Below are positions 21,254 through 46,408 of a DNA stretch of 64,000 bases, piece by piece. Source of the DNA: Fimbriimonadia bacterium (GTDB taxonomy: Bacteria; Armatimonadota; Fimbriimonadia; Fimbriimonadales; JABRVX01); NCBI GenBank assembly GCA_041483895.1, contig JBGPGO010000001.1:160001-224000 (forward strand), read 5' to 3'. Positions within the stretch are counted from its first letter, which is position 1. Each line of letters opens with the position of its first letter. The notes below the pieces were generated by a model that was given only the letters and a program-made list of their open reading frames with translations, did not search any database and was not told the DNA's origin. The position numbers and the translations under genes were made by a program.

Positions 21254-21256
21254 GCG

Positions 21257-29900: not shown

Positions 29901-32657
29901 TTCAAGCTCCGCAAGGATCCAGTCGCTCACAGACCGATCAGTGCTAACAACTCCGGAGACTTTCAGACCGAGGGGTGCGTCTACCTTCTGTCTGAGGTCG
30001 TCCCCATCCTCCGAAAGACAGACGGAGAATCCCGCGTTAACGCCGACGCGGAAGAATGCATCAAGAAATGGAACGAGTGGCGCCAACAGTGGAATGCCTG
30101 CGGCGGCGACCTCGATTATGTCGGGTGTTTCGAAGGTGATGCTAAAATCCGGTCCGAGACAGCTCTCAGACAAATGGAATCCATTCGCAAATGAATACGA
30201 TTGATCGAGTTTGAAACCCAGGCTCCACTCAAGATCCGACATCTTGTTCAGGAACAGTGAAGGAGCGAACTTCTTCTTCCGATGCTTGTCAAGGTCCGCT
30301 CCAATGTAGGTAGAGACATCTCCTGTTACTTTGGAATTCGGATATTGAATGGCATCCAACGAAATGTCAACTCCGGCAACGCCCTTCACCGAAGCCAATC
30401 CAGTCTTTGAATAGCCATCTAGGAAGGGGACTCCCAGTTTGAAAGGTACCGTAGCATCAAATGCGTCTGGAGGAGTCGTATAGTCAATGGACAACTGGTA
30501 TCTGTTGTCTGCGATGATAGGGATTGGGGAGAAACCGAAGTTCCAAAGCGCGGGCCGCAGTGATGGCGGGAGCGCCAACCCAAAGAAGTGAATCACGACG
30601 CTCTGAGATGCTTGTCCCGCAGCGTTGTAGGCCGTGACGCGCAGATCATTCCATATGCCTTTGTCCGAGTACCTAAGATCGGTTCCCATGTCGAGATCGA
30701 GCGATGCAGATTGGCCGGCCGTCGGCTTGGACCAACTCTTCCCGTTCATCACGAACTCAATTCTTCCGGCCGACCCGTGCCAATAGGATATTGTCGCCGT
30801 CACAGTGTTCGTCTTAGAAATGGAGCCCAAGAACGGTCCCTGAATGGGAAGTGATGGCTCGACCTTGTCGATAACCGGCCCATCTCCGGATACCGGATAG
30901 AACGAGATCTGCGCCGACACCGGGATACTCTGTCCAATCGTTTCATCACGGCAGGTTATCGTCGCGATGCCTTCCGTACCTGACGAGAGATTCACTCGCG
31001 CTTGGCCAAACTGATCGGTGGGGACGGTTGCGGCGGAAAAGCTATCTGCGGAACCTCGATTGCTGCTAAATCGAATTATTCGACCGCTCAATAGATCGCC
31101 GGCGGTATTTCGGTAAGTGAGAACGAGGACCGATGCCGATGTATTATCGGCCGGCAAGGTCGTCGGCAGTCCCACGAGGGATGAAGCTCCGCCGCTTCCT
31201 CCGGTCTGACCGCTCCAATATTCGTCTGCCCCAATATCGACGTGGGTGCTCATGATGCGGGTTTCTCCGTCCATATCAGTCCAGCCGTTTTGGATCCAGC
31301 TATCGTCTCCTCTGTCGATGCACGGGGAGTTTGGCTGGATGTGGAGGTTGCCATAGGCTCTGCTGACGAGGACCGGATCCACGGAAATGTTCTTGCTGAT
31401 GTCGATTTGGCCGGTGAGGCCTGAGTAATCGTAGATGGAGTTCCCATAGACGTCGTTGTTGAAAAAGGTCGGCACGCTGCTGGAGACGAGAACTCCAGTC
31501 GAGTTGAAAGCGATCAGATTATTGGCGACGACAGGTGTGGAACTGCTGGAGAATGAGAGAGCCGCTCCGCCGATTGACGTATTGCTAACGATCGTGTTGT
31601 TGACTATTCTGGCTGCGTTTGTGACGTTGCCGCATGAGATTCCGCCGGCGTTGCTCGTGATGATGTTGTTGGCGATGGTCGGCGCGCCAGAGCAGGAGAT
31701 TCCGAATGCGCCATTGCCGACGACCAAATTGTTGGCTATGTATGGATTGTTGCCGCTGCTCGTTATTCCAGTTGCCGTGTTGCTCGAAAATGTGTTGTTT
31801 CGTATTGAGGATCCGGCATACGGGCCGCCCAAGTAAAGCCCTATACCTGTATTGCTTTGGAACACGTTGTCATCAGCCATGATGAGGCAAGAGTCCGCCC
31901 ACACCCCGCCAATCCCAGTTCCGTCGTAACGTCGGTTCCCTGAAATGACGTTCGATCGAAGCGTGATCGTTCCCAGGCTGGACTGAGACAGGTACAAACC
32001 GCCCCCATTAGTCCAGGCGACATTCCCCGTAATCATGTTGCCAACGATCTGTCCGCTGTAGTTCGAACAGTAGATACCGCCACCGTAGTTAATTGAATTA
32101 GAATATTGCGTTGTATTGCCGCTGACGACGTTGTTCAGGATCGTGCATGACGAATTCGAACAGTAGATTCCAGCTCCCTGAACAGCCCCCGAATTCGATT
32201 TAATCGTGTTGTTGGCAATTGTGAAGCTCGACGATGTGCAGGAGATCCCTTGCGTACCACCCGTAATCGTAAAGCCGTCGATTGTCGCGGTCTGTTCCCC
32301 AAGGTTGTTGCACAAAACCAAGACGCCACTCTTCGGGCCAATCGTTGTCACGTTCGTAACCCAATTCCTTTGGGAAAGAACGGATTCTGTCCCGGCGAAG
32401 CCCCCGTACAGGTACACATACCGCTTCAGAATGACGTTCTCCAGGTAGCTCCCAGCAGCCACCCACACATCACCAGGGCCTACTAACGCGGCCGCATCGA
32501 TGCCACCCTGGATCGTTTTCTTCGCTTTCTCCCAAGACAAACCGTCATTCGAATCAGAACCCAATGGCGTGACGTGGATCGTCACAATTCCGAACCCAAT
32601 AGAGTACACGCCGACCATGAACAACATGCAGGCAAGCGCTCGAATCAAGTTTCTCAT
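26922..32657 (-). CDS. Very large secreted/surface protein: right-handed beta-helix, Ig-like, propeller-like and CARDB domains, dockerin-like C-terminus
   Basis: Signal peptide MRNLIRAL... after GGAGG. G.D.NDG.SW..AKKTIQ and GGGIYC/NN.I..N repeats. PDLAI..., DP.N.V.E.DE.NN (CARDB). C-terminal GDANLDNAVDIRD...DLDGSGTVDLKD. Confidence 0.8.
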   Translation of the reverse strand: MRNLIRALACMLFMVGVYSIGFGIVTIHVTPLGSDSNDGLSWEKAKKTIQGGIDAAALVGPGDVWVAAGSYLENVILKRYVYLYGGFAGTESVLSQRNWVTNVTTIGPKSGVLVLCNNLGEQTATIDGFTITGGTQGISCTSSSFTIANNTIKSNSGAVQGAGIYCSNSSCTILNNVVSGNTTQYSNSINYGGGIYCSNYSGQIVGNMITGNVAWTNGGGLYLSQSSLGTITLRSNVISGNRRYDGTGIGGVWADSCLIMADDNVFQSNTGIGLYLGGPYAGSSIRNNTFSSNTATGITSSGNNPYIANNLVVGNGAFGISCSGAPTIANNIITSNAGGISCGNVTNAARIVNNTIVSNTSIGGAALSFSSSSTPVVANNLIAFNSTGVLVSSSVPTFFNNDVYGNSIYDYSGLTGQIDISKNISVDPVLVSRAYGNLHIQPNSPCIDRGDDSWIQNGWTDMDGETRIMSTHVDIGADEYWSGQTGGSGGASSLVGLPTTLPADNTSASVLVLTYRNTAGDLLSGRIIRFSSNRGSADSFSAATVPTDQFGQARVNLSSGTEGIATITCRDETIGQSIPVSAQISFYPVSGDGPVIDKVEPSLPIQGPFLGSISKTNTVTATISYWHGSAGRIEFVMNGKSWSKPTAGQSASLDLDMGTDLRYSDKGIWNDLRVTAYNAAGQASQSVVIHFFGLALPPSLRPALWNFGFSPIPIIADNRYQLSIDYTTPPDAFDATVPFKLGVPFLDGYSKTGLASVKGVAGVDISLDAIQYPNSKVTGDVSTYIGADLDKHRKKKFAPSLFLNKMSDLEWSLGFKLDQSYSFANGFHLSESCLGPDFSITFETPDIIEVAAAGIPLLAPLVPFLDAFFRVGVNAGFSVCLSEDGDDLRQKVDAPLGLKVSGVVSTDRSVSDWILAELEAGGALSPEIQYPGTAENAKNFWGVPFINEIALDFFVTGRLKVWTLFMDQTWEGDLWSQHFVYPPAKYPPGGNGSWIWGHPDTSFVNANYHNLAGGVSAQGDTPDVHQTQLIANTYPGAQPSLAWDGDTAVVLFTYFDPSKPLWQATQIRALRYATDGTKTEQLVSPDNDTGLDSQPQVALDPNGRLIGVWTTIVGPVDGELADTRKAKAEIAFSNYDTNSHTWNTPSLITQDGRMDINPKLVHGADGGIYLAWLKSPDNQYSLDLSKPLNPHTDIHVARWNGTNFIEIRSLTGANTKEHPGLSVRSDGSMALVWSADQDADPSTSDQRLFYSQFANGNWTSRSRVTSEDANGNRPESSPEVSVDADGVPVLYFVRSEIPDPDFPRYLLEELDVTNFNNGSWMSWVPVTQSPTLGDLSVLRSPQGKVSALWTTTSKGISDIWTSVYDASAAQQYSDPVRLTWDDPGQEPADEVEVATAWDPAGNPSAVYLRRLLEKNQRDVGGGHIVDTRKPGPADLYLLSHTPKPDLAILPGDFAVDPLDAGPGQKVKLSATVRNLRALGVKDVKVGFYDGPTLIGALVVVSPNPLLGGATGIAALEWTIPSDGKSHTLRAKADPGNVVPETDETNNEQGIGLASLDLAAKVPVVGQYLPNGQLVIEFGIENISTVATGSAVEWKLMRDDPANGTVLDQGSVPALGAGQSAAISTVWDPGQVSPGTYELFLVVDPANKLGEPNRNNNVAQSKVGLLPDLYINPVLARLTPIGGGKAKVDVTIQNIGWSAAENVKVQVLAGPPGSIPLDEKFIASLARYADVVLPFDNIPLEGVPGALWVVVNPDRLIPEVRYDNNSASLTSPVTVSGKITLETWVGSPITSATFDFSQGGTNLGSYSVALGADGSYTVPAPQGAFKLSVKLSHWLRRSVQIDTSSGSISGNNLELTNGDANLDNAVDIRDLNSIFVNFGLPTPDSDLDGSGTVDLKDMNIIFINFGLIGDHQ

Positions 32658-32741
32658 TTCTGTGCCTCCGCTAATCGATAAAACCATATTGATATTTGCC
32701 ACTCGGCTAGACTCCCAAATTATTCCTCGGCAAAGCCATTA

Positions 32742-34481
32742 CTATCGTCTCTCACGACCGAAACCCAAACGCTCCTGTGCTTTGAGTTCGACGTTTATCC
32801 ATAGTCTCACTTCAGCCAGGTTCGGATTCATCTCGTCAATCGCGTAATTCAGCGCCAATCGACGGCCGAACTTTCCTGACTCCAGCTTGCCGTATGCCTC
32901 CGCAAGGATGTGAAGCGCCATCCGGCCTCGCGGAGACCGGAGTTCATCGTCCGTCATCCATTCGATCTGTTGTTTGATTTCGCCGATGTACTTTCGCAAG
33001 TCCGGGTGATTTGGTCCTTGAACCCGATTGATCGCCTTGATTAGCCAAGGCACTGCTCCTCGGTCCGGATTCAAAAGTCTCGCCGCATCCGCAGCTTGCA
33101 CCGATGGCTCGAGATTCGGTGGCCTCGGCGGATCGAAAGGACGTCCTTCTCGTTTACCAGCGTCCAGGCGGCGCTTCACTTCGTCCAGGTGCTCTTGCTC
33201 CGCAATAACCCGCCGTACTTCCGTCAGCGCGGCAAAGGCCGGATTGCAGCGCAACCCGAAGCGGCCGACGTTTTCCAGCTTCTCATTGGCCCATTTCCAA
33301 TACAGCCTCGACGCAGGGTCGTAGATGACCGAGCAGGCATAACTCGCGATCATGTAGTCGTGCCAGCCGTCGTAGAGATCGCTGAGCCATTGCTGTTGAC
33401 CCGCTACGACAGTCTCTCGGCGGGCCATAAACGTCTTTGCGGGAAGCCAAGGCAACTCGTTTAATTTCCGTTTCGGTGGCTCTGCGGTTTCATCTTCCTG
33501 CGTTTTTTGGGCTTCGAGAACCCGATTGGCAATGGCCTCCGACTGCTCATCCCAGGTCACGATCTCTTTGGCGACAATTGCAATGGCCTGCATGCGCGGC
33601 GTGTGGGAGCTCTCCGGCAAGAGGGCCAGCGCATCGGGTACGTAGTCCGGGTAGCCGTGCAACAGAAGGGATTCCGCGAGTTGTTCGACTTCGGCGGGCT
33701 TTGCGCCGGTGACGGTCAAGCGCCGTTGAAGCGCAACGATCTCTCGCGGCCAGATCTCTGGGCTGGTCTCCCTTGGCGAGAAGATGAAGACTTCGGGTTC
33801 CTCGTTGGGGACAAGGATCAGGAGCACCCGCTGTCCCGCCCGTGCCGTCCTGCCTCCGATTTGGATTGCGCGCCGGGCGACTTGCAGGGCGATCCGGTGT
33901 TCTGATAGGACTTGGAAGTTGGCCTGCGAACCAAGACCTTCGATCTGCCCCTTGCGGCCCACCACGAATGCGTTGGCCCTGCCGAACCACTGCCATGACC
34001 AGAATCCGGCTTGTGTCACATGAACTTGAGGCTTTGTCGAACCCTGCCGAATGGTGGTCCCAAGGAACGAACCGCGGACCATTGTCTGGCCGCTCGGATC
34101 CCGAATGGCGAATTGTCCCGCCGACGGAAACTCCAGGACCGGAATTGCGGCGCTTTTGAGGACGCCATACGTCGACACTGCCAGAATTGTGATTGCCGCG
34201 GCGAAAAGTAACTTGCCGGCTGGTCGCCGGCGTTGGCGTTCCAGGTTCCGCATTACGAGTCGTGTAAATCGCGCGGCCTCCTCGGGCGATGATGGCTCCG
34301 CCGAGCGGAAGTGGTCCTTGAGCAGACCCGCGTCGTCCTGCATGGTCTTAATTCGGTCGCGGCAACTTTGACAGCTATCTACATGGCGCTGAATCACCTC
34401 GCGTTCGGATTGCGAAAGTTCGCCGTCTATCAGCGCCAGCAGGATCTCCGGGGCCGGGCATTCTATTTGTCCTTCGGTCAT
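32742..34481 (-). CDS. Zinc-finger (zf-HC2) anti-sigma factor with TM helix and large extracytoplasmic domain
   Basis: C...L.ALIDGEL...RHVDSCQSC, TM segment LLFAAAITILAVSTYGVL, 4-bp overlap with the sigma gene. Confidence 0.8.
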   Translation of the reverse strand: MTEGQIECPAPEILLALIDGELSQSEREVIQRHVDSCQSCRDRIKTMQDDAGLLKDHFRSAEPSSPEEAARFTRLVMRNLERQRRRPAGKLLFAAAITILAVSTYGVLKSAAIPVLEFPSAGQFAIRDPSGQTMVRGSFLGTTIRQGSTKPQVHVTQAGFWSWQWFGRANAFVVGRKGQIEGLGSQANFQVLSEHRIALQVARRAIQIGGRTARAGQRVLLILVPNEEPEVFIFSPRETSPEIWPREIVALQRRLTVTGAKPAEVEQLAESLLLHGYPDYVPDALALLPESSHTPRMQAIAIVAKEIVTWDEQSEAIANRVLEAQKTQEDETAEPPKRKLNELPWLPAKTFMARRETVVAGQQQWLSDLYDGWHDYMIASYACSVIYDPASRLYWKWANEKLENVGRFGLRCNPAFAALTEVRRVIAEQEHLDEVKRRLDAGKREGRPFDPPRPPNLEPSVQAADAARLLNPDRGAVPWLIKAINRVQGPNHPDLRKYIGEIKQQIEWMTDDELRSPRGRMALHILAEAYGKLESGKFGRRLALNYAIDEMNPNLAEVRLWINVELKAQERLGFGRERR

Positions 34482-35017
34482 GATTCCTCATCTCCCCCAG
34501 CGATCTCCCGCAGCCGGATTAGGGCGCGGGAGATCCGTTTACGCACTGCATCGGGTTCCATTCCTATGATCTTCCCAATCTCCCGATGGCTCATCTCCTC
34601 CCCATAGCGAAGTCCCAAAATGCGACGGTCAATGTCGGTCAAAGCCGCTACCTTGGTCGCCAGGTCCATGTCCTCACAGTTGGCATCTGGAGGATTTGGA
34701 AACAGGCTTGCAGGATCCGGGTTCGCGATCTCCTGTCTTGGCCGACGCGAGTACCGAATCCAGTTCTTGCATCGGTTCCGGCTCACAACCACGACCCACG
34801 GCAAGAGGGCCTTTCGACCGTCGTACTTCGGCGCGTGTTGGCACAGATGCAGCAAGCACTCTTGGACCATGTCCTCCCGGTCGTCGGCGTCGCAATGGAA
34901 GTTGCGGACGACCGTTTTCACGGTTGGCAGGCAACAACCGATCCACCGCTCCACCGATGCCGGCTCGCGGCGTCTCACGCCCTCCACTAACTTGACCATT
35001 TCGGGTCCGGTTTCCAT
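34478..35017 (-). CDS. ECF RNA polymerase sigma factor
   Basis: DREDMVQECLLHL...LLPWVVVVSRNRCKN (region 2) and LRYGEEMSHREIGKIIGMEPDAVRKRISRALIRLR (region 4). Confidence 0.88.
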   Translation of the reverse strand: METGPEMVKLVEGVRRREPASVERWIGCCLPTVKTVVRNFHCDADDREDMVQECLLHLCQHAPKYDGRKALLPWVVVVSRNRCKNWIRYSRRPRQEIANPDPASLFPNPPDANCEDMDLATKVAALTDIDRRILGLRYGEEMSHREIGKIIGMEPDAVRKRISRALIRLREIAGGDEES

Positions 35018-35110
35018 GCCTTCCCATTGAGATATTACAACTAGGACCAGCAAAACCGGACATTCTGCCGCTGGGACTGGATGTTTCCGCCGCCTCCTGG
35101 TACATGTCCT

Positions 35111-35144
35111 TTTGGTATCGATAATGGCCCTTTTCGATACCAAA
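35111..35144. other. dif-like palindromic recombination site upstream of tyrosine recombinase
   Basis: tttggtatcgataa-tggccc-ttttcgataccaaa: 14-bp arms (13/14 complementary) around a 6-bp spacer, adjoining the AAGGAGG SD. Confidence 0.7.
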
Positions 35145-35158
35145 GGAGGCAGAAAACC

Positions 35159-35608
35159 ATGGCAATTGAACTCAAAGTTACAGAAGCTGCCCCAGCCGGA
35201 CCGGATGCGCTGGAGTTCCTTCTGAAGTCCAAAAGGAGGGAGGTCACGAGGCTGGCCTACCAGCGGGACCTGCGGCTGTTCTTCCGGGTCTTCGCCCGAA
35301 GCGAGCCGACGCCGCAGACGATCGGCGCATTCTTCAAGCTGAACACGCCCGGCGTCGTTCGGGCGATGCTCACCTTCAAGATGCAGCAGATAGAGCAAGG
35401 CGTGGCCGAAGTCACGCTCAACCGTCGTCTGACCGCCATCCGCTCGCTTCTGAGCGTGGCAAGGCAGCTTGGCCTGACGGAAGTCAACCCGCAAGGCCTA
35501 GTGCCGGGCGAGAAGACGATGCAGTACCGCGACACGAGAGGCGTCGACAAGGACGCTGCGGCCGCGATGCTCCTTCTTCCCGATACCTCAATGCTCAAAG
35601 GGAACCGC
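35159..35608 (+). pseudogene. Truncated XerC/D-like tyrosine recombinase (core-binding domain only)
   Basis: TRLAYQRDLRLFF, TLNRRLTAIRSLL, LLLPDTSMLKGNR. Homology stops just before the RD..GLR catalytic box. Confidence 0.8.
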
Positions 35609-35625
35609 AGCGCGGCGAGCCTCAG

Positions 35626-35677
35626 TGTAAGCAGCGGAGAGAACCGGGCCCACTTGGGCGGAGCAAATATGTACCAC
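35626..35677 (+). repeat. IS21-family-like terminal sequence (left of CBASS)
   Basis: Begins TGT, followed by two GCGGAG..AA......CCAC units. 35/44 identical to 41054-41097. Confidence 0.6.
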
Positions 35678-35687
35678 TGGACGGCGC

Positions 35688-35930
35688 TATGCGCTGATGC
35701 TGGAACTGGAGCAAATCAACCTGCCGCTGGAGTATTTGGACACGTTCCCTGCCAGGTTCGAGGCGATCACGGCTGCGAACATCCCGCACGTCGCGCGATA
35801 ATATCCGGCAAAGAACCGCATCCAGCTGATTTCAGCAGTGGAACGCAAACAGATCGAGGCGGGAGTGCGCAAATACGGGGCTACCGAAATCGTTTTGGAC
35901 GGCCAGCTTGACGAGAGAAGAAACCGCTGA
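35688..35930 (+). pseudogene. Remnant resembling the C-terminus of an M16 (pitrilysin-like) peptidase
   Basis: Manual translation: LELEQINLPLEYLDTFPARFEAITAANIPHVAR*YPAKNRIQLI...KQIEAGVRKYG, with an in-frame TAA at 35799. Confidence 0.5.
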
Positions 35931-35981: not shown

Positions 35982-37589
35982 ATGCTGCCCCCAGAAATTA
36001 GGACGCTGAATCCGCGCGAAATTGATCGTCTCGTCGAATGCTTCAATCGATACGAGTATGTGGTTCCGTTTATTGGAGCGGGCATGTCGGTTCCTTTCGG
36101 ATATCCAAGCTGGACAGGATTTTTGCGCGGCGCCGCAAAGGACGCCAACCGATCTGCGGAAGTAGCGAACTCAATTGCAAAAGGCATGTTCGACGACGCT
36201 GCCCAAATTATTTGCGATGCGTTCGGGCAGTCGGTATTCGACGACCTTATCACGCAGACATTTGGCGACAACGGAAGCAAGGCCAAAGGAGCGGAACCAC
36301 TCGTCGTTGTACCGCACATTACCACTGGACTTGTGATCACTACGAATTTTGACTCGAAGACTAAGGACACGTTCGCCGAGAACGATGCACCGCTTGAATT
36401 GGCACGGGGGCCCGCGATCGATACCGTAGTTGGGGCCAGCCTCGCCCGCAAGCCGTTGCTTTGGCATGTCCACGGGACTGCGGATGAACGTAGCAACCGG
36501 GTGGTGACAGCATCGGATTATCGTAGGGCATATCCCGACGAGCGGCCAGATAAAACGATCGGGGTCGCTGTCGATTGGCTGCTCGAAAGAGTGTTCGTCT
36601 CCCAAAGAATGCTCTTCCTTGGCTGCAGTTTGCTGACCGATCGCACTGTGCAAGCACTTCAAAATGCGCATGGCAAAAACCCAGTCCGCCAGCATTTCGC
36701 CATTCTGGAAGAGCCTGTTGATAGCGATAAGATTCACCGGACCCGTCAGCTCGGCGAAATGGGAATTTGTCCAATCTGGTACCCAGCCGGCAGGTACGAC
36801 CTCATTTATCCCACACTGAGATGGATCGAAAGCAACACAGCAGAGAGCATCGCACACGACAGACCTTCCGCCAGACGGCAGTTTGCCATCGTCACATATG
36901 ACGCAACGCCATCATCAGTAATTGCTCATCCGGGTTGCCTCGACCTCCGCGCCCCATTTGCGTCCGGGCCACTGGCGGATGAGGCCGCTTGGACGGACCT
37001 GGTGGCGGGGCCAGTATCGCGATTTGCTCGGACCATGTGCGAAGAGGCTTCGGCGTGTGTCGTCCAATTGAATTGCAGGCTTGCAGTCGCATTCTGTTTA
37101 GGTACGAACGTCCCAATTGGTACGGGCATAAACATCGTAATTCTGCAACAGGGCATCAGCGGACCGCGAGAGTGGTCCCCCAGATGGGGAGAGGATTCTG
37201 GTCTACGGTGGAATATTACTAAAGCTGCCGTAGGTTCGGGGCAGGACATCGTTCTATCCGTGCATGCAGGACACGGTACCCTGAAGGAGCCGCCTGAATT
37301 CGCGAGTGCAGAGATCCCCAGTGCTGGTACCTTGATCGAAGCACAAATGGAGAATACAAACGCTACTGCCGCGGTGTCCAGCGGGGCGCACGCGTACGCC
37401 CTCGCCCAAGAGTTGATTCGAATTGTGTCCGACACTAGGTCAGCCAAAACCAGCACCCATATTTTCTATAAGGGACCCATTGCACTCGCGTTTTTCCTCG
37501 GTCAACTACATAAGAGCTTAGGGCCAGGCATCTTTTACGAGTATAATTCACCGGAAGCGAGCTACGTACCCGCAATACATTTTCCGTAG
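35982..37589 (+). CDS. CBASS effector: SIR2-like NADase domain fused to SAVED sensor
   Basis: N-terminus: PFIGAGMS..GYPSW, ITTNFD, HVHG, LFLGCSL. C-terminus: RLAVAFCLG, HIFYKGPIALAFFLGQ...FYEY....YVPA (SAVED). Confidence 0.85.
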   Translation: MLPPEIRTLNPREIDRLVECFNRYEYVVPFIGAGMSVPFGYPSWTGFLRGAAKDANRSAEVANSIAKGMFDDAAQIICDAFGQSVFDDLITQTFGDNGSKAKGAEPLVVVPHITTGLVITTNFDSKTKDTFAENDAPLELARGPAIDTVVGASLARKPLLWHVHGTADERSNRVVTASDYRRAYPDERPDKTIGVAVDWLLERVFVSQRMLFLGCSLLTDRTVQALQNAHGKNPVRQHFAILEEPVDSDKIHRTRQLGEMGICPIWYPAGRYDLIYPTLRWIESNTAESIAHDRPSARRQFAIVTYDATPSSVIAHPGCLDLRAPFASGPLADEAAWTDLVAGPVSRFARTMCEEASACVVQLNCRLAVAFCLGTNVPIGTGINIVILQQGISGPREWSPRWGEDSGLRWNITKAAVGSGQDIVLSVHAGHGTLKEPPEFASAEIPSAGTLIEAQMENTNATAAVSSGAHAYALAQELIRIVSDTRSAKTSTHIFYKGPIALAFFLGQLHKSLGPGIFYEYNSPEASYVPAIHFP

Positions 37590-37618
37590 TGCCGGAAACG
37601 GCGGAAGTAGGTGAATAG

Positions 37619-38695
37619 ATGGATCTCCCGTACTATTTTAGTGAATTCGTGTCGCGGATCCGACTGGCCGACATGGCTAACTATGTCGACGCCCATAAAA
37701 TTCTTCGTGATCGGCTGAAAGCGTACCCATCGCTCAAGGAAATCTATATTTCTACGTTCCTCCAGGGCAGCTACCGCAGACATACGGCGATCCGCACGGT
37801 GGCCGGGAAAAGTGCCGACATAGATGTCGTCGTTGTCACGAACCTAAGGGAAGAAGAAAAGACACCGACTCAGGCGATGGCCATCTTTCGGCCTTTTCTC
37901 GACGAATACTATTCGGGGCAATGGCGTTATCAGGACCGCTCGATTCTCGTTAGTCTTCCCGACCTGGAACTCGATTTGGTCGTGACCTCAGCGCCATCGG
38001 AATCTGCCAAAGCGGTATTGTTGAGCGATCCAGTCATTTCATCGTTCGATGTCACTGATGACAGGCACGATGCATTTTGGAGCAACATTGGTGGCAGCAA
38101 CGGTATTTCTGCCGCAGAATCAGCCACGTGGAAATTAGATCCTTTGCGGATTCCAGATCGTAGTGCCAAAGAATGGACATCAACTCATCCGTTGGACCAA
38201 ATCGCATGGACATGGAAGAAGAATAAGGGCTGCGATTTCAACTATTTAGGTGTTGTTAAGATATTGAAGTGGTGGCGTCGAATCACTTACGACGAGCCCA
38301 AATATCCGAAAGGTTACCCCCTGGAGCATATCACTGGGTATTGCTGTCCGGACTCCATCAACGGGCTGGCCCAAGGCATCACCGAGACACTTGAATCGAT
38401 TGTGGCCACGTTCGCGGTAGATTTCCGGTTCGGCAAGGTGCCCGTGCTGCCGGATCATGGGGTTCCGGCCCACAACGTGCTTAAGCGGCTCACTGGAGAG
38501 GATTTTGCAACGTTTTACGAAAAGGCAAGCGATGCAGCAGCGAAAGCGCGCCTCGCGCTAGATGAACCAGACAAGGACAAGAGCATCCAATATTGGCGAG
38601 AACTGCTCGGTGATGAGTTTGGCGAGGATCCCGACGAATCTGAACGCATTCTTGCACCGGCGGTGGCGAAACCCAGAACGGAGCGATTTGCCTAG
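37619..38695 (+). CDS. CD-NTase (SMODS/cGAS-DncV-like cyclic oligonucleotide synthase), CdnD-like
   Basis: FLQGSYRRHTAIR...DIDVVV, ELDLVVT, W..THP..Q, VKILKWWR, PKGYPLEH, and flexible tail ending KPRTERFA. Confidence 0.92.
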   Translation: MDLPYYFSEFVSRIRLADMANYVDAHKILRDRLKAYPSLKEIYISTFLQGSYRRHTAIRTVAGKSADIDVVVVTNLREEEKTPTQAMAIFRPFLDEYYSGQWRYQDRSILVSLPDLELDLVVTSAPSESAKAVLLSDPVISSFDVTDDRHDAFWSNIGGSNGISAAESATWKLDPLRIPDRSAKEWTSTHPLDQIAWTWKKNKGCDFNYLGVVKILKWWRRITYDEPKYPKGYPLEHITGYCCPDSINGLAQGITETLESIVATFAVDFRFGKVPVLPDHGVPAHNVLKRLTGEDFATFYEKASDAAAKARLALDEPDKDKSIQYWRELLGDEFGEDPDESERILAPAVAKPRTERFA

Positions 38696-38699
38696 GCAC

Positions 38700-40493
38700 G
38701 TGTCCTTTGAAATTCCAAAGCCGATACAGATGGGGTTGCGCGAAGCCGACGGGAGCGTGCCCCAAGTTCACCTCGTACCACCAGTCATCGCTGTTCAAGA
38801 AGGCACTTTCGCCCTTGAATTTAGGATCATATCAGAACACACGAGCCAGTTCGTGCCCGAATCGACGACGTGGTACGCAATTTTGCAAGAAGACTACCCA
38901 TACGGCAAAATCGACATTTTTCCGGCAAAGGAAGGCGGGATTACTTGCACCTTTCCGCATCAGCAGTTCAACGGTCCTAATACCTCCAGCGATTATCCGT
39001 GGCGAAGCGGCAACATTTGCGTTACGGAAACCGGATATCGCATCGGTCGCGAGGTCATTCTTGCAGAGCCATTCAATAGTAAACGTCTAGCATGGCATCT
39101 TGAACAGGCGAGAGACTGGATCCAATGTGCCGCAAGAGGGCTTCTGTCGCAACCAGGAGACCCTTTTGAATTGCCGGACTTTCCTCGGTCCGAAAACGCG
39201 ACGTCCTTTGCATATTGGGAAGACCGTACGACCTTTTCTGCATGGTCAGAGATTAACGAGGTCTGCGGTCTAGCTGAACTGTGTTCTGTTCCCGGGAATA
39301 GTAGCATCCGCGCAATTAAGTCATTCAATTCGGGTCGCGACACAATTGATCTCAGACCACCCTGGGGAAAGTTTCTGAAGGACAGAACACCAACGCAAGC
39401 CGCAATATGGCTCCGATTCCCAAGCGTTCCTATTCTCCCACCTTGGCAAGTTCCTGTGACAATCGGACAGCTCATCGATGCCGGCAACGTCGTCGGACTA
39501 GATGTCACTGATCAAGTTAAGGCAGCGATGCGCCACTGCCCAGCCTCATCTATTACATCATTCCTCGTCGGCATCCCGATACCCGAGTATTTTGGCGGAG
39601 TGCCGATTCAGTGGCATTGGCAGGCGATGGAGTTCGGGCCGTCGCTGCTTGATACCCAATCCGCGAAGAGAGTGAGACGCCGAGCCACCTTCTACAAAAG
39701 GGATATCGAGACATTGACGGAGAGGTCAAGAGGTATCGCGTGGTTTCCTTCAACAAACTGGTCTAAGGATCAGCTAATGGTGCGGGGTGCCATAGAGGCT
39801 ATTCAGGATAAGTTTATCCTGGTAATTGGCGTTGGCGCGATCGGGTCTGTAGTCGCTGAACTCCTCGTACGCGGAGGTTCGAAACGAGTAATGCTGGCTG
39901 ATGCAGAACGGTTCACTGTTGGCAATCTCGTTCGGCACATCGCTTCGATCCCACATGTTATGTTTCAAAAATCCATTGCGATGGAGCATCGTTACAATAA
40001 CACAGTTCCCTATGCGAATGTCGACAGTTCTATTAGCCGATTTCGAGCCAATGGAGCAGACTTCCCCGGGCACGCTCCAAATCTCGACCTAATTGTCGAT
40101 TGCACAGGAGAGGACGCCGTCATCGAGGGAGTCCAATTGTCCGCGTTGGAGGGGGATCTCCCATTCGTATCCATTTCTCTTGGTTGGGAAGCCAAGAGGT
40201 TGTTTCTGTACAGCGCACCCAAGCAATTGATCAATGTCGAGTGGTTTCAAGAAAAGTGGAACGAGGTTACCGAAGACGAGCGCAAGGTTCGCCGCAGAGA
40301 GGACTTTACAATGGAAGGTATTGGCTGTTGGCATCCGGCGTTTCCCGCACCCATTCATCGCGTTTGGTCGTTGGCTGCTCTTTCCGTTGTAGCCCTCGAA
40401 AAACTGCTCATTGAGGGCATCAATAACCCAGGTTTCCATGTGATCGAATTTGAAGCGGAAAGCGGCTCAGCATTGATCACCAGGATTCCGTGA
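38700..40493 (+). CDS. cap2: CBASS Cap2 E2-E1 (ThiF) fusion
   Basis: E2: YPYG...TFPHQ...GNICV. E1: VIGVGAIGS, GNLVRH, IVDCTG, GCWHP. GTG start 4 nt after the CD-NTase stop. Confidence 0.88.
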   Translation: MSFEIPKPIQMGLREADGSVPQVHLVPPVIAVQEGTFALEFRIISEHTSQFVPESTTWYAILQEDYPYGKIDIFPAKEGGITCTFPHQQFNGPNTSSDYPWRSGNICVTETGYRIGREVILAEPFNSKRLAWHLEQARDWIQCAARGLLSQPGDPFELPDFPRSENATSFAYWEDRTTFSAWSEINEVCGLAELCSVPGNSSIRAIKSFNSGRDTIDLRPPWGKFLKDRTPTQAAIWLRFPSVPILPPWQVPVTIGQLIDAGNVVGLDVTDQVKAAMRHCPASSITSFLVGIPIPEYFGGVPIQWHWQAMEFGPSLLDTQSAKRVRRRATFYKRDIETLTERSRGIAWFPSTNWSKDQLMVRGAIEAIQDKFILVIGVGAIGSVVAELLVRGGSKRVMLADAERFTVGNLVRHIASIPHVMFQKSIAMEHRYNNTVPYANVDSSISRFRANGADFPGHAPNLDLIVDCTGEDAVIEGVQLSALEGDLPFVSISLGWEAKRLFLYSAPKQLINVEWFQEKWNEVTEDERKVRRREDFTMEGIGCWHPAFPAPIHRVWSLAALSVVALEKLLIEGINNPGFHVIEFEAESGSALITRIP

Positions 40494-41002
40494 GCGTGAA
40501 CTACGACCAATTGGAATTCGTCGGCAAGATCTCTACAGTCCTCGTCATCGTCTCATCCACCGCACTCTCGAAAATGCTAATGGAATGCTCCGTAGACCCA
40601 GATATTGAGACCGGAGGTGTTCTGCTGGGCCGGTTTCGGACAAAGGACGCCGCAGTTCTTGTGAAGGAAGCCACCGGTTCCCCAGCCGATTCGGCTAAGT
40701 CTCCTGGGGAGTTCATACGAGGAACTGAAGGATTAGACGATACCTTGCAACGAGCATATAATTGTTCACTTCAATATGTCGGTGAATGGCATTTCCACCG
40801 CACGGCAGAACCCAGGCCGAGCGATCGTGACCGGCGCACAATGATGGGCATAACTAAGAGCGATAACTACCACATGCTATATCCGATCCTAGCGATCGTT
40901 TCAAACAAAAAGGCTTGTTGGACCATTGGCATCTACCGCTTCGAACGGAGTGGAATGTGCGAGTGCTGTGGTACAGCATTATTCGCCACTACTGGGATAT
41001 AG
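40490..41002 (+). CDS. cap3: CBASS Cap3 JAB/JAMM isopeptidase
   Basis: ETGGVLLG, YVGEWHFH...PSDRD. GTGA overlap with cap2. Confidence 0.88.
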   Translation: MSVNYDQLEFVGKISTVLVIVSSTALSKMLMECSVDPDIETGGVLLGRFRTKDAAVLVKEATGSPADSAKSPGEFIRGTEGLDDTLQRAYNCSLQYVGEWHFHRTAEPRPSDRDRRTMMGITKSDNYHMLYPILAIVSNKKACWTIGIYRFERSGMCECCGTALFATTGI

Positions 41003-41053
41003 AGAACTTGCGCTTGTGCGCCCCGATGCACCGGGTGGCTGACGGGCAAAATG

Positions 41054-41147
41054 GCGGAGAGAAATGCGGCCACATAGGCGGAGCAAAATTGTTCCACGTT
41101 GCGACGAGCTGTGTCAACGGCGGCGGAACAGTGTACCACTGCGGCGG
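41054..41147 (+). repeat. IS21-family-like terminal repeats (right of CBASS)
   Basis: Three GGCGG..AA..TG..CCAC units, the third starting TGTCAACGGCGG at 41112. No transposase follows. Confidence 0.6.
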
Positions 41148-41332
41148 TGGGTTATGACCCACCTCACCGCTGAATTTAGACTTCCAGAAGTTCCGGCTCC
41201 ATTCTGGCATTGGTCGTCAGAGTCGGTCTTATCAACATTGCCGACTTTGGGGGCATTCCAGGTGGAATAATGGTCTTCTTATTAGCCATGCGAGTCCCGG
41301 CTGGCCTACTCCATTCAGGGTGGCATGTCGAT

Positions 41333-42328
41333 CTATTGTTCGGGATGCGGAAGCCTGACAGCGGCGTCCGTCCGAGTGAATTCCTCCCAGTCTTCATCGC
41401 TGATCTTGTAATTCTCACGTTTCTCGACGTACTGGCGAATCTTGTCCATATCCACCACGTCATGGTGAACTCCAACCCCGACAGGGTCGACGGGCTGTTG
41501 AGCCGCACTTCCCGAAGAGCTGGACAGCTGATAAGCGGCAAGCCCGAGGCCCGTTAGCTCCTCATCGTACTGTTGGCATTCGGGACGAGTTTTGAACTTA
41601 GTCGAAGATTCGATCTCTACCAGCCATTTCCTAATCCTCGAAAAAGCCGTATGCATCCGGTGTTTCATAGGCTTTCTATCGTCGGGATTTTCGACCAATT
41701 CACCTTCTTTCGCAAACATCAGTACAGTTTCTCGTTCCATCTCGGAGGGTTTGACGCAATGCAGGGCAAACGCCTTCAGGTTCCTTTGTTCGGCCCCCGT
41801 GAGAGTCGGTCGGGGGCGACCGTGCACTAAGGGCACGAGCAATTCGCCGTGGTTGCCACGCTCATTCTTAAGATCTGCGCGTAGCGTGATGAGGGCAGAC
41901 TCGACCGCCTTGACTTCGCGAAGAGCATCTTCCACGCATTGAAGAGCGGTTTGCCAGGGTTGTTTGAATAGACGCTTTGCCAATCGAGTCGGCAGGTTCT
42001 CGGCTAGTTTCACCACTGCTTCGCGCTTTTTGCAAGTGGAGTAGCTGATGCGCGTCCAAGCGCTTGCTTTCGAGAATCCTTCTTCCCGCAGATCCTCTAA
42101 TTTCCGGAGCCATGCAAACCACATCCGCACCAAGCATTTTGGCCCAATCTCGTAGGGCCCACCGATCTCTTCGATGTCGAGAAACCGGCTACGGTTCCCG
42201 TCTCTCGCGTGACGACGGAGATTCAATGCCTCGAGTTGTTGTTGCAGACGATTGTCCGTAGCAACGATCAAATGGTGCATCAAGAAGGCGAGCTTGATGT
42301 CGTCTTGTTGGCTCTTCGATATCTCCAT
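41333..42328 (-). CDS. Hypothetical protein, divergent from the recombinase operon
   Basis: 331-aa ORF with GAGGA SD. No family recognised. Confidence 0.6.
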   Translation of the reverse strand: MEISKSQQDDIKLAFLMHHLIVATDNRLQQQLEALNLRRHARDGNRSRFLDIEEIGGPYEIGPKCLVRMWFAWLRKLEDLREEGFSKASAWTRISYSTCKKREAVVKLAENLPTRLAKRLFKQPWQTALQCVEDALREVKAVESALITLRADLKNERGNHGELLVPLVHGRPRPTLTGAEQRNLKAFALHCVKPSEMERETVLMFAKEGELVENPDDRKPMKHRMHTAFSRIRKWLVEIESSTKFKTRPECQQYDEELTGLGLAAYQLSSSSGSAAQQPVDPVGVGVHHDVVDMDKIRQYVEKRENYKISDEDWEEFTRTDAAVRLPHPEQ

Positions 42329-42564
42329 TTTTTTCCTCTCACAAGAAACTCAGGCTCTAGATTGTGACACCCCTCCTCGTGAGATGCTCAATCCTATGCG
42401 CTCAGAGAGTTCAACTCCAAAGGACGGAGAAGAGACCGCCGGTGTGCCGGTGGATGGAAGTGAGCACGAGCGCCGCGACCAACACGAGGCGGAAAAGGTG
42501 TTGTTGCGGTTCTTCTCGATCCTCTTGCACATTTCTGAGAGCAAATCCAACGGAGGAGCAAAAC

Positions 42565-42798: not shown

Positions 42799-44883
42799 AT
42801 GAATAACACAAACGAAACAAACCGAGCTATGCCGCACGTTGCCATCTATGCGCGTGTCAGTACCGAGGAGCAAGCAAGAGAGGGCTTTTCCATTAAAGTC
42901 CAGCCTCAACAGTGCATTGAGGAACTCGAAAAGCGATTTGGCAGGAACGGCTTCACCCATGAATCGTTCTCAGACGCCGGCAAGTCCGGATCCTCTGGAC
43001 CAAGACCATGGGAGCCCGATCTCCGCAAGCGTGGCGACCGCAAGGGCCTTCACGAGCTATTCGAAGGATTGCGGCAAAAACGGTTTACTCACATCGTTGC
43101 CCTCAGGCGAGATCGGATCTATCGAAACATCGCCAATTGGTTGGCCTTCAAGGCAATTATGTTGCAAGGCGTCGATCTGATATTTGTCTTGGAACCTGAT
43201 GAAGATGACTCACCTTCCGGCGAATTGGCGTCCGGCATGATTGCTTATGTTGCTCAGTATGAGTTGGACAAGACGCGCGAGAATGTCAAGAATGCGCTTC
43301 GTAAACGGGTAGCACAAGGCTACAAGCTCGGCGCCGAATTATATGGTTGGCGCAAACAGGAATCTCACGAGGTCGAAGCGGGAAAGCGCAAGAGCATCGT
43401 ACCGATTGAAGAGGAGCTTTCGATTGTGCGCCAGGTCAAGGACTGGTATCTGTCCGGGATGTCGTACGCTCAGATTGCTGACAAGCTCAACGATCTTGGT
43501 GTACCAAGACGCATAGCAAAGGGCAAGAAATGGGAAAGCTCGACGATTCGCATCTTGCTGTCCAATCCGACGCATGCAGGCTTGATCAAGAATGCCGACG
43601 GGGACCTCGTACCCGCGGAATTCTATGAGAGCCGTGCGTACGATCCGGAAGTCTACTACCGCATCCAACAGGTCAAGGCGGAACGCAATCGGCGCTTCAA
43701 GGGACTAGCGGCCACCGAACCCCATCGACTGTTCGCAAAAGTTGTGAGTTGCGGAATATGTAGCAAGGCTTTGCGATCCATGATGCAAGGGGACGGCTAC
43801 GCCTACCGATGCAACCAACGCCGATTCGGCCCGGCCCAAGGCCATGTGTATATCGCGGCAAAGACTCTTGAGAAAGCCATACTTTCAGAGCTCGAACGGG
43901 TATCTCAATTGCCCGATGTCTTGTCCGAAGCGGAGAATTGCATCCGTGAGTATTCGGATTCGAACGCAGGCCAACTCGAAGCAGAACTGAGGCGTCTGAA
44001 ACAACATGTCGCCGTTCTGGACTGTAGGAAGAAGGAATTGCAGCGGTCGGTTGTGCGAGGGGAGATCCAACCGAAGGAGTTTCAGCCGATCAGCGATTGC
44101 ATTGAAGAAGCTCGCAGCGGACCGCTAGCATCGATCACTGAGTTAGAGATGCAGCTGACGAATCGCACTTCTCATGAAGAGACATGCCGCAGAGCCATTG
44201 AGGCGCTTCGCTCGTTCCCGACGCTCTGGGGGAACCTCACCGACACCGAAAAGCGCGAGTTCCTCCGGATTGTTGTCGAAAAGGCGGTCCTAAACAAGGA
44301 TGAAAATGAGATGTGGCTGGAGCTCAAACTTTGCATGCTCGATGAAGTAAGGATCGCGGTGCCCCGCCGGGCTATCGACGGCAGGTACGAGCGTCCTCCA
44401 GGTGCTGAGGGGCTTACAGAGCGGCAACTTGCCATTCTATGGCACGTACTTCAAGGCCGCGGACCAAAGGAAATCGCTTCGCATTTTGAAGTGACGCCAA
44501 CCTCCGTCAATGAGATGGGCCGCAAGATCCGGCAGCACTTAGGAGTTGCCGATCTGGTGTCGGCAGCCGCCATGGCTCAGGAGGCGATCAACCGATATGA
44601 GCGCTTCTTGCCAGTCGAAGGCGCCTATTTCCGCAAATATAACTCGCTTCGTCTTCGCGTGACGGAGTATCGTGTCCTAACGGCGCTGGCCGCCGGGTCA
44701 AGTTGGGACGACATTTGCCAACAGGCCGGAATGGACTTACCTCGCCTGAAGAAGGCGTTCGCGAAGGCGGTTGCCAAACTGGGGACCGACGATCCCAAAG
44801 AAATGCTTCGCATTGCTAAGGACCGGAACCTGCTGCCATCGAGACTAAAGCGAAAGGATGAAAATGGGAAGGACCTCCTCTAA
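42799..44883 (+). CDS. Large serine recombinase with two C-terminal LuxR-type HTH domains
   Basis: YARVSTEEQ, RRDRIYRN, recombinase domain, CGIC..YRC zinc ribbon, coiled coil, then LTERQLAIL..G...KEIA and LRVTEYRVL.ALAAG. Confidence 0.88.
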   Translation: MNNTNETNRAMPHVAIYARVSTEEQAREGFSIKVQPQQCIEELEKRFGRNGFTHESFSDAGKSGSSGPRPWEPDLRKRGDRKGLHELFEGLRQKRFTHIVALRRDRIYRNIANWLAFKAIMLQGVDLIFVLEPDEDDSPSGELASGMIAYVAQYELDKTRENVKNALRKRVAQGYKLGAELYGWRKQESHEVEAGKRKSIVPIEEELSIVRQVKDWYLSGMSYAQIADKLNDLGVPRRIAKGKKWESSTIRILLSNPTHAGLIKNADGDLVPAEFYESRAYDPEVYYRIQQVKAERNRRFKGLAATEPHRLFAKVVSCGICSKALRSMMQGDGYAYRCNQRRFGPAQGHVYIAAKTLEKAILSELERVSQLPDVLSEAENCIREYSDSNAGQLEAELRRLKQHVAVLDCRKKELQRSVVRGEIQPKEFQPISDCIEEARSGPLASITELEMQLTNRTSHEETCRRAIEALRSFPTLWGNLTDTEKREFLRIVVEKAVLNKDENEMWLELKLCMLDEVRIAVPRRAIDGRYERPPGAEGLTERQLAILWHVLQGRGPKEIASHFEVTPTSVNEMGRKIRQHLGVADLVSAAAMAQEAINRYERFLPVEGAYFRKYNSLRLRVTEYRVLTALAAGSSWDDICQQAGMDLPRLKKAFAKAVAKLGTDDPKEMLRIAKDRNLLPSRLKRKDENGKDLL

Positions 44884-46408
44884 CGGAAAATCGAGGCGCT
44901 CCACTGCCGTGATCTATGCGCGCGTTAGTTCCAAGGAGCAAAACGACGAAGGCTACAGCATTCCCGCTCAGCTTCGGCTCCTGCGGGATTATGCGCGCGA
45001 GAAGGGCATTGAGGTCGTTGAAGAATTCACGGATGCTGAAACGGCAAAGCAAGCCGGTCGAACTTCGTTTGCCAAGATGCTTCAATTCATCAAGGCAAAA
45101 TCTATCTCCACGATACTTGTTGAGAAGACCGATCGTCTCTACCGAAACTTTGCCGACTTCGTCAAGGTCGACGAATTGGGGTCCGAACTCCATTTTGTTA
45201 AAGAAGGTCAGGTCATCAGCGTCGAATCGCGGAGCGCCGATAAGTTCATGCATTCGATTCGGGTGTGCATGGCGAAGAACTACGTCGACAACTTAAGCGA
45301 AGAGATTCGCAAGGGCATGGCAGAGAAGGCGAGGCAAGGAATCTATCCGACCCACGCGCCCCTTGGCTACCTCAATGCTCCCGACGGTCCGAGGAAGAAG
45401 ATCGTACTGGATCCGGATCGAGGAGTACTCGTCACTCGCCTCTTCGAAGCCTATGCAAGCGGCTCATACTCTCTGACGCAATTGACACAGTTCGCTCGCG
45501 AGATCGGATTGGTGACAAAGAAGCATCACCAGGTGCAAAGGAGCAACATCGCCCTGATGCTCCAGAGCCCTGTCTATTCCGGCCGAATCGTATGGAACGG
45601 CGAGAGCTACCCAGGCACCCACACACCGCTTGTCGACAAGCTGACCTTCGATCGAGTCCAGGACATACTGCACGGCCGGCGCAGTAAGGCCGGGTTTGGC
45701 CATAGGGAGTTTGCATTCAAAGGGCTCGTATATTGCCGATGCGGCGCGGCCATGACCGGCGACATTAAGAAAGGGAAATACATCTACTACCGATGCAATG
45801 GGCGCAAAGGGCTGTGCGACAAGCCGAGTGTGAAAGAAGAGGTTTTCATTGACCACATCCGGGATCTGCTCTCAAGGCTGTCGTTGCCTCCTGAGATATT
45901 TGAATGGCTGAGGACGGCGCTCAAATCAAGCTTGGACGACGAACAACGATTTCGCCAACTAGAAGACGAGCGGATGGAAACGAACGCAGCACAGATCAAA
46001 AAGCGCCTCGAGACGCTCTACCTCGACAAGATTCAAGGCGATGTGTCAGCCGAGTTTTATCGCGACACCCGGCAGAAGTGGGAAGAGGAACTAGACGATA
46101 TTCGGGCCCGCCAGGCTGCGATGAGCCGGACTGAGGGCGCATATTACGACGATGGACTTCAATTGCTCGAACTCGCGAGAACAGCCGCAGACAGGTACGA
46201 ATCGGCCTCCGTGAGCGAGAAACGGGAACTCTTACAATGTATCTGTTCGAACTGCATCTTTGACGGCAGCACCATCTCCGTCAACCTGCGAAAACCGTTT
46301 GATTTGCTCCTAAAAGCGCCCGAATTCGGCAGCGTGCCTAATGCCGCAAAATGCCCAGATTCCCCAGCAAATCAAGATTGGTGGAGGCTAGCGGACTCGA
46401 ACCGCTGA
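44858..46408 (+). CDS. Large serine recombinase (integrase); 3' end runs antisense into tRNA-Ala
   Basis: YARVSSKEQ, KTDRLYRN, APLGY, CRCG..YYRC..C. The terminal WWRLADSNR* is encoded by the tRNA reverse complement. Confidence 0.92.
   Translation: MKMGRTSSNGKSRRSTAVIYARVSSKEQNDEGYSIPAQLRLLRDYAREKGIEVVEEFTDAETAKQAGRTSFAKMLQFIKAKSISTILVEKTDRLYRNFADFVKVDELGSELHFVKEGQVISVESRSADKFMHSIRVCMAKNYVDNLSEEIRKGMAEKARQGIYPTHAPLGYLNAPDGPRKKIVLDPDRGVLVTRLFEAYASGSYSLTQLTQFAREIGLVTKKHHQVQRSNIALMLQSPVYSGRIVWNGESYPGTHTPLVDKLTFDRVQDILHGRRSKAGFGHREFAFKGLVYCRCGAAMTGDIKKGKYIYYRCNGRKGLCDKPSVKEEVFIDHIRDLLSRLSLPPEIFEWLRTALKSSLDDEQRFRQLEDERMETNAAQIKKRLETLYLDKIQGDVSAEFYRDTRQKWEEELDDIRARQAAMSRTEGAYYDDGLQLLELARTAADRYESASVSEKRELLQCICSNCIFDGSTISVNLRKPFDLLLKAPEFGSVPNAAKCPDSPANQDWWRLADSNR

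Follow-up and report, generated by a model that had tools for sequence, protein, structure and literature searches.

A type II CBASS operon with a predicted SIR2-SAVED effector in a Fimbriimonadia bacterium

Organization of the operon

The window analyzed here is a 64,000-nucleotide stretch of the genome of a Fimbriimonadia bacterium (assembly GCA_041483895.1, contig JBGPGO010000001.1, positions 160,001 to 224,000 of the forward strand). Four open reading frames (ORFs) are packed on its + strand at 35982-41002 and encode a SIR2-SAVED effector, a cGAS/DncV-like nucleotidyltransferase (CD-NTase), a Cap2 protein of the E1-E2 type, and a Cap3 protein of the JAB family (Table 1). The effector is the first gene, and its sensor domain (SAVED, residues 286-535) is encoded together with the CD-NTase. 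The genes are separated by 29 nt and 4 nt, and the start of Cap3 lies over the stop of Cap2 in a 4-nt GTGA overlap. All four frames are open, and the catalytic motifs are intact in all four translated genes. The four genes form a tight operon, an intact type II cyclic oligonucleotide-based antiphage signaling system (CBASS). An earlier sequence-only reading of this DNA had proposed four tightly packed genes for SIR2-SAVED, CD-NTase, E2-E1, and JAB proteins at these coordinates and had assigned them to type II CBASS. Pfam and PADLOC agree with these gene identities, and the partner genes form a complete set.

Table 1. Positions of the CBASS genes, effector domains, repeats, and neighboring features in the window
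Feature	Position	Strand	Basis or remark
SIR2-SAVED effector, 535 aa	35982..37589	+	Pfam SIR2_2 + SAVED
Predicted SIR2_2 NADase-like domain of effector	~residues 1-285 = 35982-36836	+	Pfam, PADLOC, predicted fold
Predicted Cap4-type SAVED sensor of effector	~residues 286-535 = 36837-37586	+	Pfam, PADLOC, PDB match
CD-NTase, CdnD-like, 358 aa	37619..38695	+	SMODS, PADLOC Cyclase
Cap2 E2-E1 fusion, 597 aa from GTG 38700 (most likely start)	38700..40493	+	PADLOC E1-E2, PDB 7to3_A
Cap3 JAB/JAMM isopeptidase, 170 aa	40490..41002	+	Prok-JAB, PADLOC JAB
Upstream copy, 44-nt imperfect direct repeat	35634..35677	+	Repeat family D1
Downstream copy, 44-nt direct repeat	41054..41097	+	52 nt past Cap3 stop
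Truncated XerC-like ORF	35081-35911	+	N-terminal SAM-like domain only
331-aa ORF between cassette and serine recombinases	41333-42328	-	No Pfam, NCBIfam or PADLOC match
Two large serine recombinases, 694 + 516 aa, 26-nt overlap	42799-46408	+	
Helicase-methylase defense cluster, three very large genes, DISARM and Druantia parts mixed	13023-26659	+	~10 kb upstream of cassette
1926-aa secreted-looking protein (beta-helix, Big_1, CARDB) beside zf-HC2 anti-sigma and extracytoplasmic function (ECF) sigma factor	26922-35494	-	

The mechanically called ORF of Cap2 spans 38562-40493 and shares 134 nt with the cyclase gene. An in-frame GTG is present at 38700, 4 nt past the cyclase stop, and the PADLOC E1-E2 alignment begins at residue 50 of the ORF. 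Because of these two observations, the true start of Cap2 is most likely GTG 38700, giving a gene at 38700-40493 and a protein of 597 aa. A promoter and terminator scan returned nothing exceeding the shuffled expectation.

The cyclase, Cap2, and Cap3

The CD-NTase matches Pfam SMODS (E 1.9e-20) and the PADLOC Cyclase model PDLC00822 (E 1.3e-127). Its best match in the PDB is the cyclic AMP-AMP-GMP (cAAG) synthase CdnD of Enterobacter cloacae (7ljl/7d48/7to3_C, E 2.5e-82, residues 1-335). Both the GS...DxD motif and the third Asp are present in intact form and align with those of EcCdnD, and the C-terminus of the protein reads ...TERFA.

Cap2 matches Pfam ThiF (E 1.8e-13) and PADLOC E1-E2 (PDLC00848, E 2.1e-149), and its closest structure is E. 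cloacae Cap2 (7to3_A, E 2.3e-66). Cys107 and Cys543 of the window protein stand opposite Ala109 and Ala548 of 7to3_A, positions that we take to be those of the catalytic cysteines of E2 and E1, which are mutated in the trapped complex. Cap3 matches Pfam Prok-JAB (E 1.3e-8) and PADLOC JAB (PDLC00890, E 7.7e-34), and its match to the NCBIfam Cap3 model NF050170 (E 4e-7) is under the model cut-off. It carries the JAMM motif H-x-H-x7-S-x2-D (HFHRTAEPRPSDRD).

The effector joins a SIR2 fold to a Cap4-type SAVED domain

The N-terminal half of the effector contains the motifs GAGMS (residues 32-36), TTNFD (120-124), HG (164-165), and GCSL (214-217), all of which the sequence-only reading had listed as intact. 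Pfam SIR2_2 is found at residues 117-265 (E 6e-18), and in PADLOC residues 14-255 match the SIR2 regions of LmuA and ThsA. The PADLOC ThsA models align in their SIR2 part only (positions 23-231 of 478, effector residues 28-250). Residues 1-285 have no match to any Cap4 or endonuclease model in Pfam or PADLOC. Sequence matches of this half in the PDB are SeThsA (7uxt) and EcThsA (8wc0), and a profile made from the SIR2 alignment matches SeThsA (1.5e-30), EcThsA, BcThsA, DSR2, KomC, and FAM118B, with a range of 2e-24 to 1.5e-30 for ThsA.

When residues 1-293 are modeled alone with 40 aligned sequences, the predicted local distance difference test score (pLDDT) is 92.2 and the predicted template modeling score (pTM) is 0.91. 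The best Foldseek matches of this model are SeThsA, BcThsA in its helical form bound to glyco-cyclic ADP-ribose (gcADPR), KomC, EcThsA, and DSR2, with E 5e-12 to 1e-9 and query-normalized TM-scores of 0.61-0.71 (0.64-0.71 for SeThsA, BcThsA, KomC, and DSR2). In the profile alignment, N122 and H164 of the window protein align with N112 and H152 of BcThsA, which are presumably the residues needed for ThsA NADase activity. T120, T121, N122, H164, and G165 do not vary across the alignment of 40 SIR2 sequences (40 of 40), nor across the five SIR2-SAVED proteins described below. By sequence and predicted fold, the N-terminal half is thus a SIR2 fold nearest to the defense NADases ThsA, KomC, and DSR2, which bears out the sirtuin domain proposed earlier, with both catalytic positions kept. 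A predicted complex of two SIR2-domain copies scored 0.00, and this is evidence neither way.

The C-terminal half matches Pfam SAVED at residues 354-533 (E 2.8e-19). The Cap4-type PADLOC model SAVED_PDDEXK (PDLC02004, E 5.6e-40) is matched at its positions 240-488 by residues 287-532, and its positions 1-239 are without a match in the effector. No model of PADLOC v2 spans the effector end to end. No TIR domain is matched in the effector, and the alignment to the SAVED_TIR model PDLC02012 is confined to residues 311-532. The closest solved structure is E. cloacae Cap4 (7yia/7yib, E 1e-16, residues 284-531 against 253-497). The full-length AlphaFold model is mediocre (pLDDT 64) and its SAVED half is usable, with most 10-residue blocks at ~56-91. 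Cap4 also ranks first in a Foldseek search with the SAVED half (E 3.8e-17, probability 1.0), followed by further SAVED folds: AbCap4 with cyclic trinucleotides, SAVED-CHAT, TIR-SAVED with cyclic triadenylate (cA3), Cap5, and 3TM-SAVED. A viral SAVED ring nuclease and SAVED-Lon are also among these matches. The C-terminal half is, by alignment and model, a Cap4-type SAVED domain, and the earlier assignment of a SAVED domain to this half holds. The last SIR2 helix covers residues 272-284, and the junction with SAVED follows directly at ~284-287, where the Cap4 match starts and close to the suggested domain boundary of ~285-290.

Comparison with characterized effectors

The closest known relative of the whole operon is the type II CBASS of E. 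cloacae, composed of CdnD, Cap2, Cap3, and Cap4 (7ljl, 7d48, 7to3, 7yia/7yib). The window operon shares its cyclase clade, Cap2, Cap3 JAB, and Cap4-type SAVED. E. cloacae Cap4 has an N-terminal PD-(D/E)xK (DUF4297) nuclease, whereas the window effector has SIR2_2 in that place. The predicted output of the window system is NAD+ loss in place of DNA cleavage.

A canonical Cap4 is found within the same phylum. It lies at locus L005 of genome G122 (G122:C11:109371-113096), matches PDLC02004 at positions 8-490 (E 7.8e-125), and is the best SAVED-only match in the same-phylum genome search. This gene is directly upstream of a cyclase that hits the same PADLOC model and is 45% identical to the window cyclase, so that the gene order, effector then cyclase, is that of the window. 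The window effector aligns with the L005 Cap4 from residue 336 onward only, at 27% identity. Judged by these alignments and predicted folds, the effector is a domain swap in which the Cap4 nuclease has been exchanged for SIR2 and the sensor is unchanged in kind. The start of the L005 Cap4 gene is shared with an unassigned ORF of 210 aa.

Three other groups of proteins resemble parts of the effector. TIR-SAVED (7qqk, a cA3-activated NADase filament) is composed, like the window effector, of an N-terminal NAD+-consuming domain followed by SAVED at the C-terminus (Foldseek E 3.8e-9), and by analogy the expected outcome, nucleotide-gated NAD+ depletion, would be the same. The NADase of TIR-SAVED has a TIR fold; that of the window is the unrelated SIR2 Rossmann fold. 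The active site of TIR is assembled across protomers. The SIR2 site, unlike that of TIR-SAVED, lies within one protomer, and the route of activation may therefore differ. Thoeris ThsA (SIR2-SLOG; 6lhx, 8bto, 7uxt, 8wc0) has similar SIR2 sequence and fold, with equivalent Asn and His, and both it and, as predicted, the window effector are nucleotide-gated NADase effectors. The ThsA sensor is SLOG for gcADPR and the Thoeris signal comes from the TIR protein ThsB, whereas the window sensor is SAVED and its signal is predicted to come from a CD-NTase. The SIR2 sequences nearest to the window effector are those of SIR2-STAND/Avs5-like proteins and other SIR2_2 fusions, whose C-terminal regions are STAND NTPase, TPR, or HAD, without SAVED. 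SIR2-STAND/Avs5-like proteins sense phage proteins directly and not a second messenger.

Relatives and distribution

An exhaustive HMMER search of 1.84 billion cluster representatives returned 2,430 matches at E <= 0.001. Besides the query, four of the best 150 of these matches span both SIR2 and SAVED: P0033 (541 aa, 32% identity), P0034 (536 aa, 32%), P0035 (570 aa, 27%), and P0129 (545 aa, 28%). The other 145 among the best 150 cover the SIR2 half only, and further SIR2-SAVED proteins may lie beyond them. The nearest SIR2-only relatives reach 41-43% identity. In PADLOC, each of the four SIR2-SAVED relatives is split between models as the window effector is, and the invariant residues of SIR2 and SAVED are retained in all of them. 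They are deep-branching, with 25-31% identity in the five-sequence alignment (A1), and all five proteins are singletons at 90% identity. They derive from one NCBI genome (the window's own), from Logan assemblies, and from ENA. A quick maximum-likelihood tree was built from 77 SIR2 domains. Its five SIR2-SAVED rows fall on one side of a branch with Shimodaira-Hasegawa-like approximate likelihood ratio test support of 83, and the branch leading to the window SIR2 is long (1.83). The tree fits a single origin of the fusion without proving it.

A profile of the five sequences matched 11 of 400 other same-phylum genomes at E <= 1e-10 (12 of 401 including the window's own). No full-length SIR2-SAVED protein was found in the 400 genomes, every match being to the SIR2 part or the SAVED part only. 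Among 72,556 plasmids, no match spans >=80% of the protein, and a scan of viral contigs gave no SIR2-SAVED relative. A scan of Joint Genome Institute (JGI) metagenomes gave 38 loci, all SIR2-only by tblastn and none full-length; the best three encode a SIR2-HAD protein. The ESM Atlas holds SIR2-only clusters with scores <=0.82 and no large cluster of SIR2-SAVED architecture. Genome contigs scanned with the single protein gave no match, and with the alignment they gave one N-terminal fragment at a contig end in a Clostridia metagenome-assembled genome (L001). Word-index searches with the whole protein, the SAVED region, and A1 returned SIR2-half relatives or the query itself only and missed the four full-length relatives; because even these known proteins were not returned, the word-index searches are uninformative on rarity. 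On the profile and homology searches, the SIR2-SAVED architecture appears to be very rare.

The window's own genome contains a second, weak SIR2_2 match (E 8.9e-6) at G000:C6:194834-195088 (-), within a 343-aa ORF. This ORF is in the size class of stand-alone SIR2 proteins, which are among the nearest relatives of the effector SIR2 domain.

In the literature searched, no paper mentions SIR2-SAVED by name, including variant spellings; Burroughs 2015, Millman 2020, and Lowey 2020 are outside that scope and may list the architecture. No SIR2 effector in CBASS is described in excerpts of PMC10952713, PMC10419184, PMC12480259, PMC12162218, PMC13464706, PMC13454610, PMC13434031, bioRxiv 10.1101/2024.05.08.593097, or bioRxiv 10.1101/2025.09.30.679545. 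A figure legend of Altae-Tran et al. 2023 (PMC10910872) has the entry "SIR2: sirtuin-like domain" among CRISPR-linked CARF/SAVED proteins, and the exact architecture is not given there. The sequence-only reading had regarded the combination as uncharacterized, and this is consistent with the literature search and with the lack of a full-length PADLOC v2 model. SIR2-SAVED combines two well-understood modules in a natural chimera, apparently without prior characterization.

Proposed mechanism and alternative explanations

The operon is probably a type II CBASS like the CdnD-Cap2-Cap3-Cap4 system of E. cloacae, except that a SIR2 NADase, gated by a nucleotide and acting against phage, has replaced the effector nuclease. 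Upon infection, the CdnD-like CD-NTase would synthesize a cyclic oligonucleotide, the most likely product being a cyclic trinucleotide of the cAAG/cAAA type. Cap2 would conjugate the C-terminus of the cyclase and so prime it, and Cap3 would reverse the conjugation. The signal would be bound by SAVED in the C-terminal half of the effector (535 aa), and ligand-dependent oligomerization of SAVED would cluster or release the N-terminal SIR2 domains. These would hydrolyze NAD+ via N122 and H164, and the depletion of NAD+ would halt the infected cell and the phage, resulting in abortive infection.

The steps of this model draw on different kinds of evidence. NADase activity, nucleotide gating, and phage defense are predicted from sequence and modeled structure. 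A cyclic trinucleotide is the expected signal because of the homology to CdnD and Cap4. Oligomerization of SAVED upon ligand binding is suggested by analogy with Cap4, TIR-SAVED, SAVED-CHAT, Cap5, and TM-SAVED. As summarized in a 2026 review (PMC13434031), Tak et al. 2026 proposed, with experimental evidence, that SAVED is a generic ligand-dependent oligomerization module, and a working chimera was obtained in the same work by effector-domain swap. In the window's own genome (95% complete; 3.95 Mb in 43 contigs), SMODS and SAVED are each matched once and Csm1/Cas10 is not matched, which leaves the adjacent cyclase as the one evident source of ligand.

Several points weigh against this interpretation. 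The association of SIR2-SAVED with a CD-NTase is seen at one locus, that of the window. The functional case for the effector and its four relatives rests on sequence and predicted structure, and the full-length model is weak in the SIR2 core (pLDDT 64), hence the mutual placing of the two domains is not given. The nucleotide is a guess from the nearest characterized homologues, and the products of CD-NTases are hard to predict from sequence. The model also takes as background that EcCap4 responds to cAAG and that N112 and H152 of BcThsA are catalytic. SIR2_2 domains could also, in principle, be ADP-ribosyltransferases or deacylases and not NADases.

This last point leads to a different output for the same operon. 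Once SAVED is occupied, the SIR2 domain might not act as a bulk NADase and might instead ADP-ribosylate a protein or nucleic-acid target or make a second signal derived from ADP-ribose (ADPR). In favor of this output, the SIR2 superfamily includes transferases and deacylases, and the branch of the window SIR2 is long (1.83). However, every one of the nearest structures, whether found by sequence or by fold, is a defense NADase (ThsA, DSR2, KomC, with the Avs5-like SIR2-STAND relatives), and the cassette holds no candidate gene for a downstream receptor. This output is unlikely.

A broader version of the idea is quite doubtful. In it, SIR2-SAVED would be a distinct, ancient, and very rare class of CBASS effector, in which, downstream of a CD-NTase, a SAVED-stacked SIR2 oligomer turns NAD+ into an ADPR-derived product or ADP-ribosylates a target as a second signaling tier or a targeted kill, and the four-gene unit would move as a 5.4-kb cassette between the 44-nt repeats.

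The operon could also be decaying or silent, left over on an old mobile island, with its SIR2-SAVED fusion a non-functional accident. The effector is a singleton at 90% identity, the cassette lies beside a truncated XerC-like gene, and no RNA runs carrying the cassette are listed. Against this, the four frames are open with every catalytic motif intact, and contigs of four sediment metagenome runs, perhaps not independent of the source, contain the cassette without a single letter changed. The four deep-branching relatives keep the full-length architecture and the invariant SIR2 and SAVED residues, which argues for selection. Decay of the operon is very improbable.

It is equally hard to credit that the SAVED domain answers a signal from elsewhere, such as a type III CRISPR cyclic oligoadenylate or a phage-derived nucleotide, or acts as a ring nuclease: SAVED effectors do occur in both CBASS and type III CRISPR, SIR2 is listed among CRISPR-linked CARF/SAVED proteins in the figure legend of PMC10910872, and a viral SAVED ring nuclease and SAVED-Lon are among the fold matches, but the effector gene opens a tight operon that also encodes a CD-NTase, its 95%-complete genome has no Csm1/Cas10 match, and its SAVED is closest to the Cap4 of a CdnD system just as its cyclase is closest to CdnD.

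If the effector is the nucleotide-gated NADase that we consider probable, it would be the first sirtuin-type effector tied to CD-NTase signaling. The three best-studied bacterial NAD+-depleting effector types are TIR-SAVED, TIR-STING, and SIR2-SLOG (ThsA), each with one sensor and one enzyme. SIR2-SAVED joins the sensor of one known effector type to the enzyme of another, and thus offers a direct test of SAVED as a generic ligand-driven oligomerization module, including with an active site contained in a single protomer. Phage counter-defenses that rebuild NAD+ or act as nucleotide sponges would then reach CBASS. No new kind of system is opened by this finding, since nucleotide-gated NAD+ depletion by a SAVED effector has already been characterized in TIR-SAVED.

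Flanking repeats and genomic neighborhood

The two copies of the 44-nt repeat are 80% identical and bracket the four-gene cassette exactly. Each is composed of two GCGGAG-N10-CCAC half units, a pattern with 2 matches in the window versus 0 in 100 shuffles. The bracketing copies are the only ones in the 3.95-Mb genome, and the pattern was not found in 100 other genomes of the order. The repeats may be attachment (att)-like or a recombinase-binding site. No contig of the four sediment metagenome runs joins the two repeats, and no empty site or excised form was seen; the source sample may be among these runs, and they do not count as independent support. A joint of 38566 to 42474 in metagenome contigs was disregarded, one side being only 20 letters. 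The guanine-cytosine content is 0.52-0.55 across 36-46 kb versus 0.58-0.60 on the flanks.

The XerC-like ORF becomes featureless after ~residue 175, just before the upstream repeat. The missing half of this truncated integrase was sought downstream of the second repeat and was not found. A 17+17-nt palindrome is present at 35111-35144, at the 5' end of the ORF, and metagenome contigs diverge leftward at 35073 and 35100, a possible boundary of an island. The first of the two serine recombinases (694 aa) has a C-terminal LuxR/GerE helix-turn-helix, and the 5' ends of both genes share a 30-nt repeat. Their best NCBIfam matches, XisF and Ccr-type cassette recombinases, are under the cut-offs. Beyond them are genes for UDG, HIT, and SerRS.

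Upstream, the defense cluster encodes a DrmD-like SNF2 helicase (PADLOC 4e-196), a 1679-aa type IIG restriction endonuclease-methyltransferase/DrmMI-like protein, and an 1800-aa DruE-like helicase that carries an MrfA Zn-binding domain (DUF1998). In the 26922-35494 region, the ORF of the ECF sigma factor was probably called too long at its 5' end.

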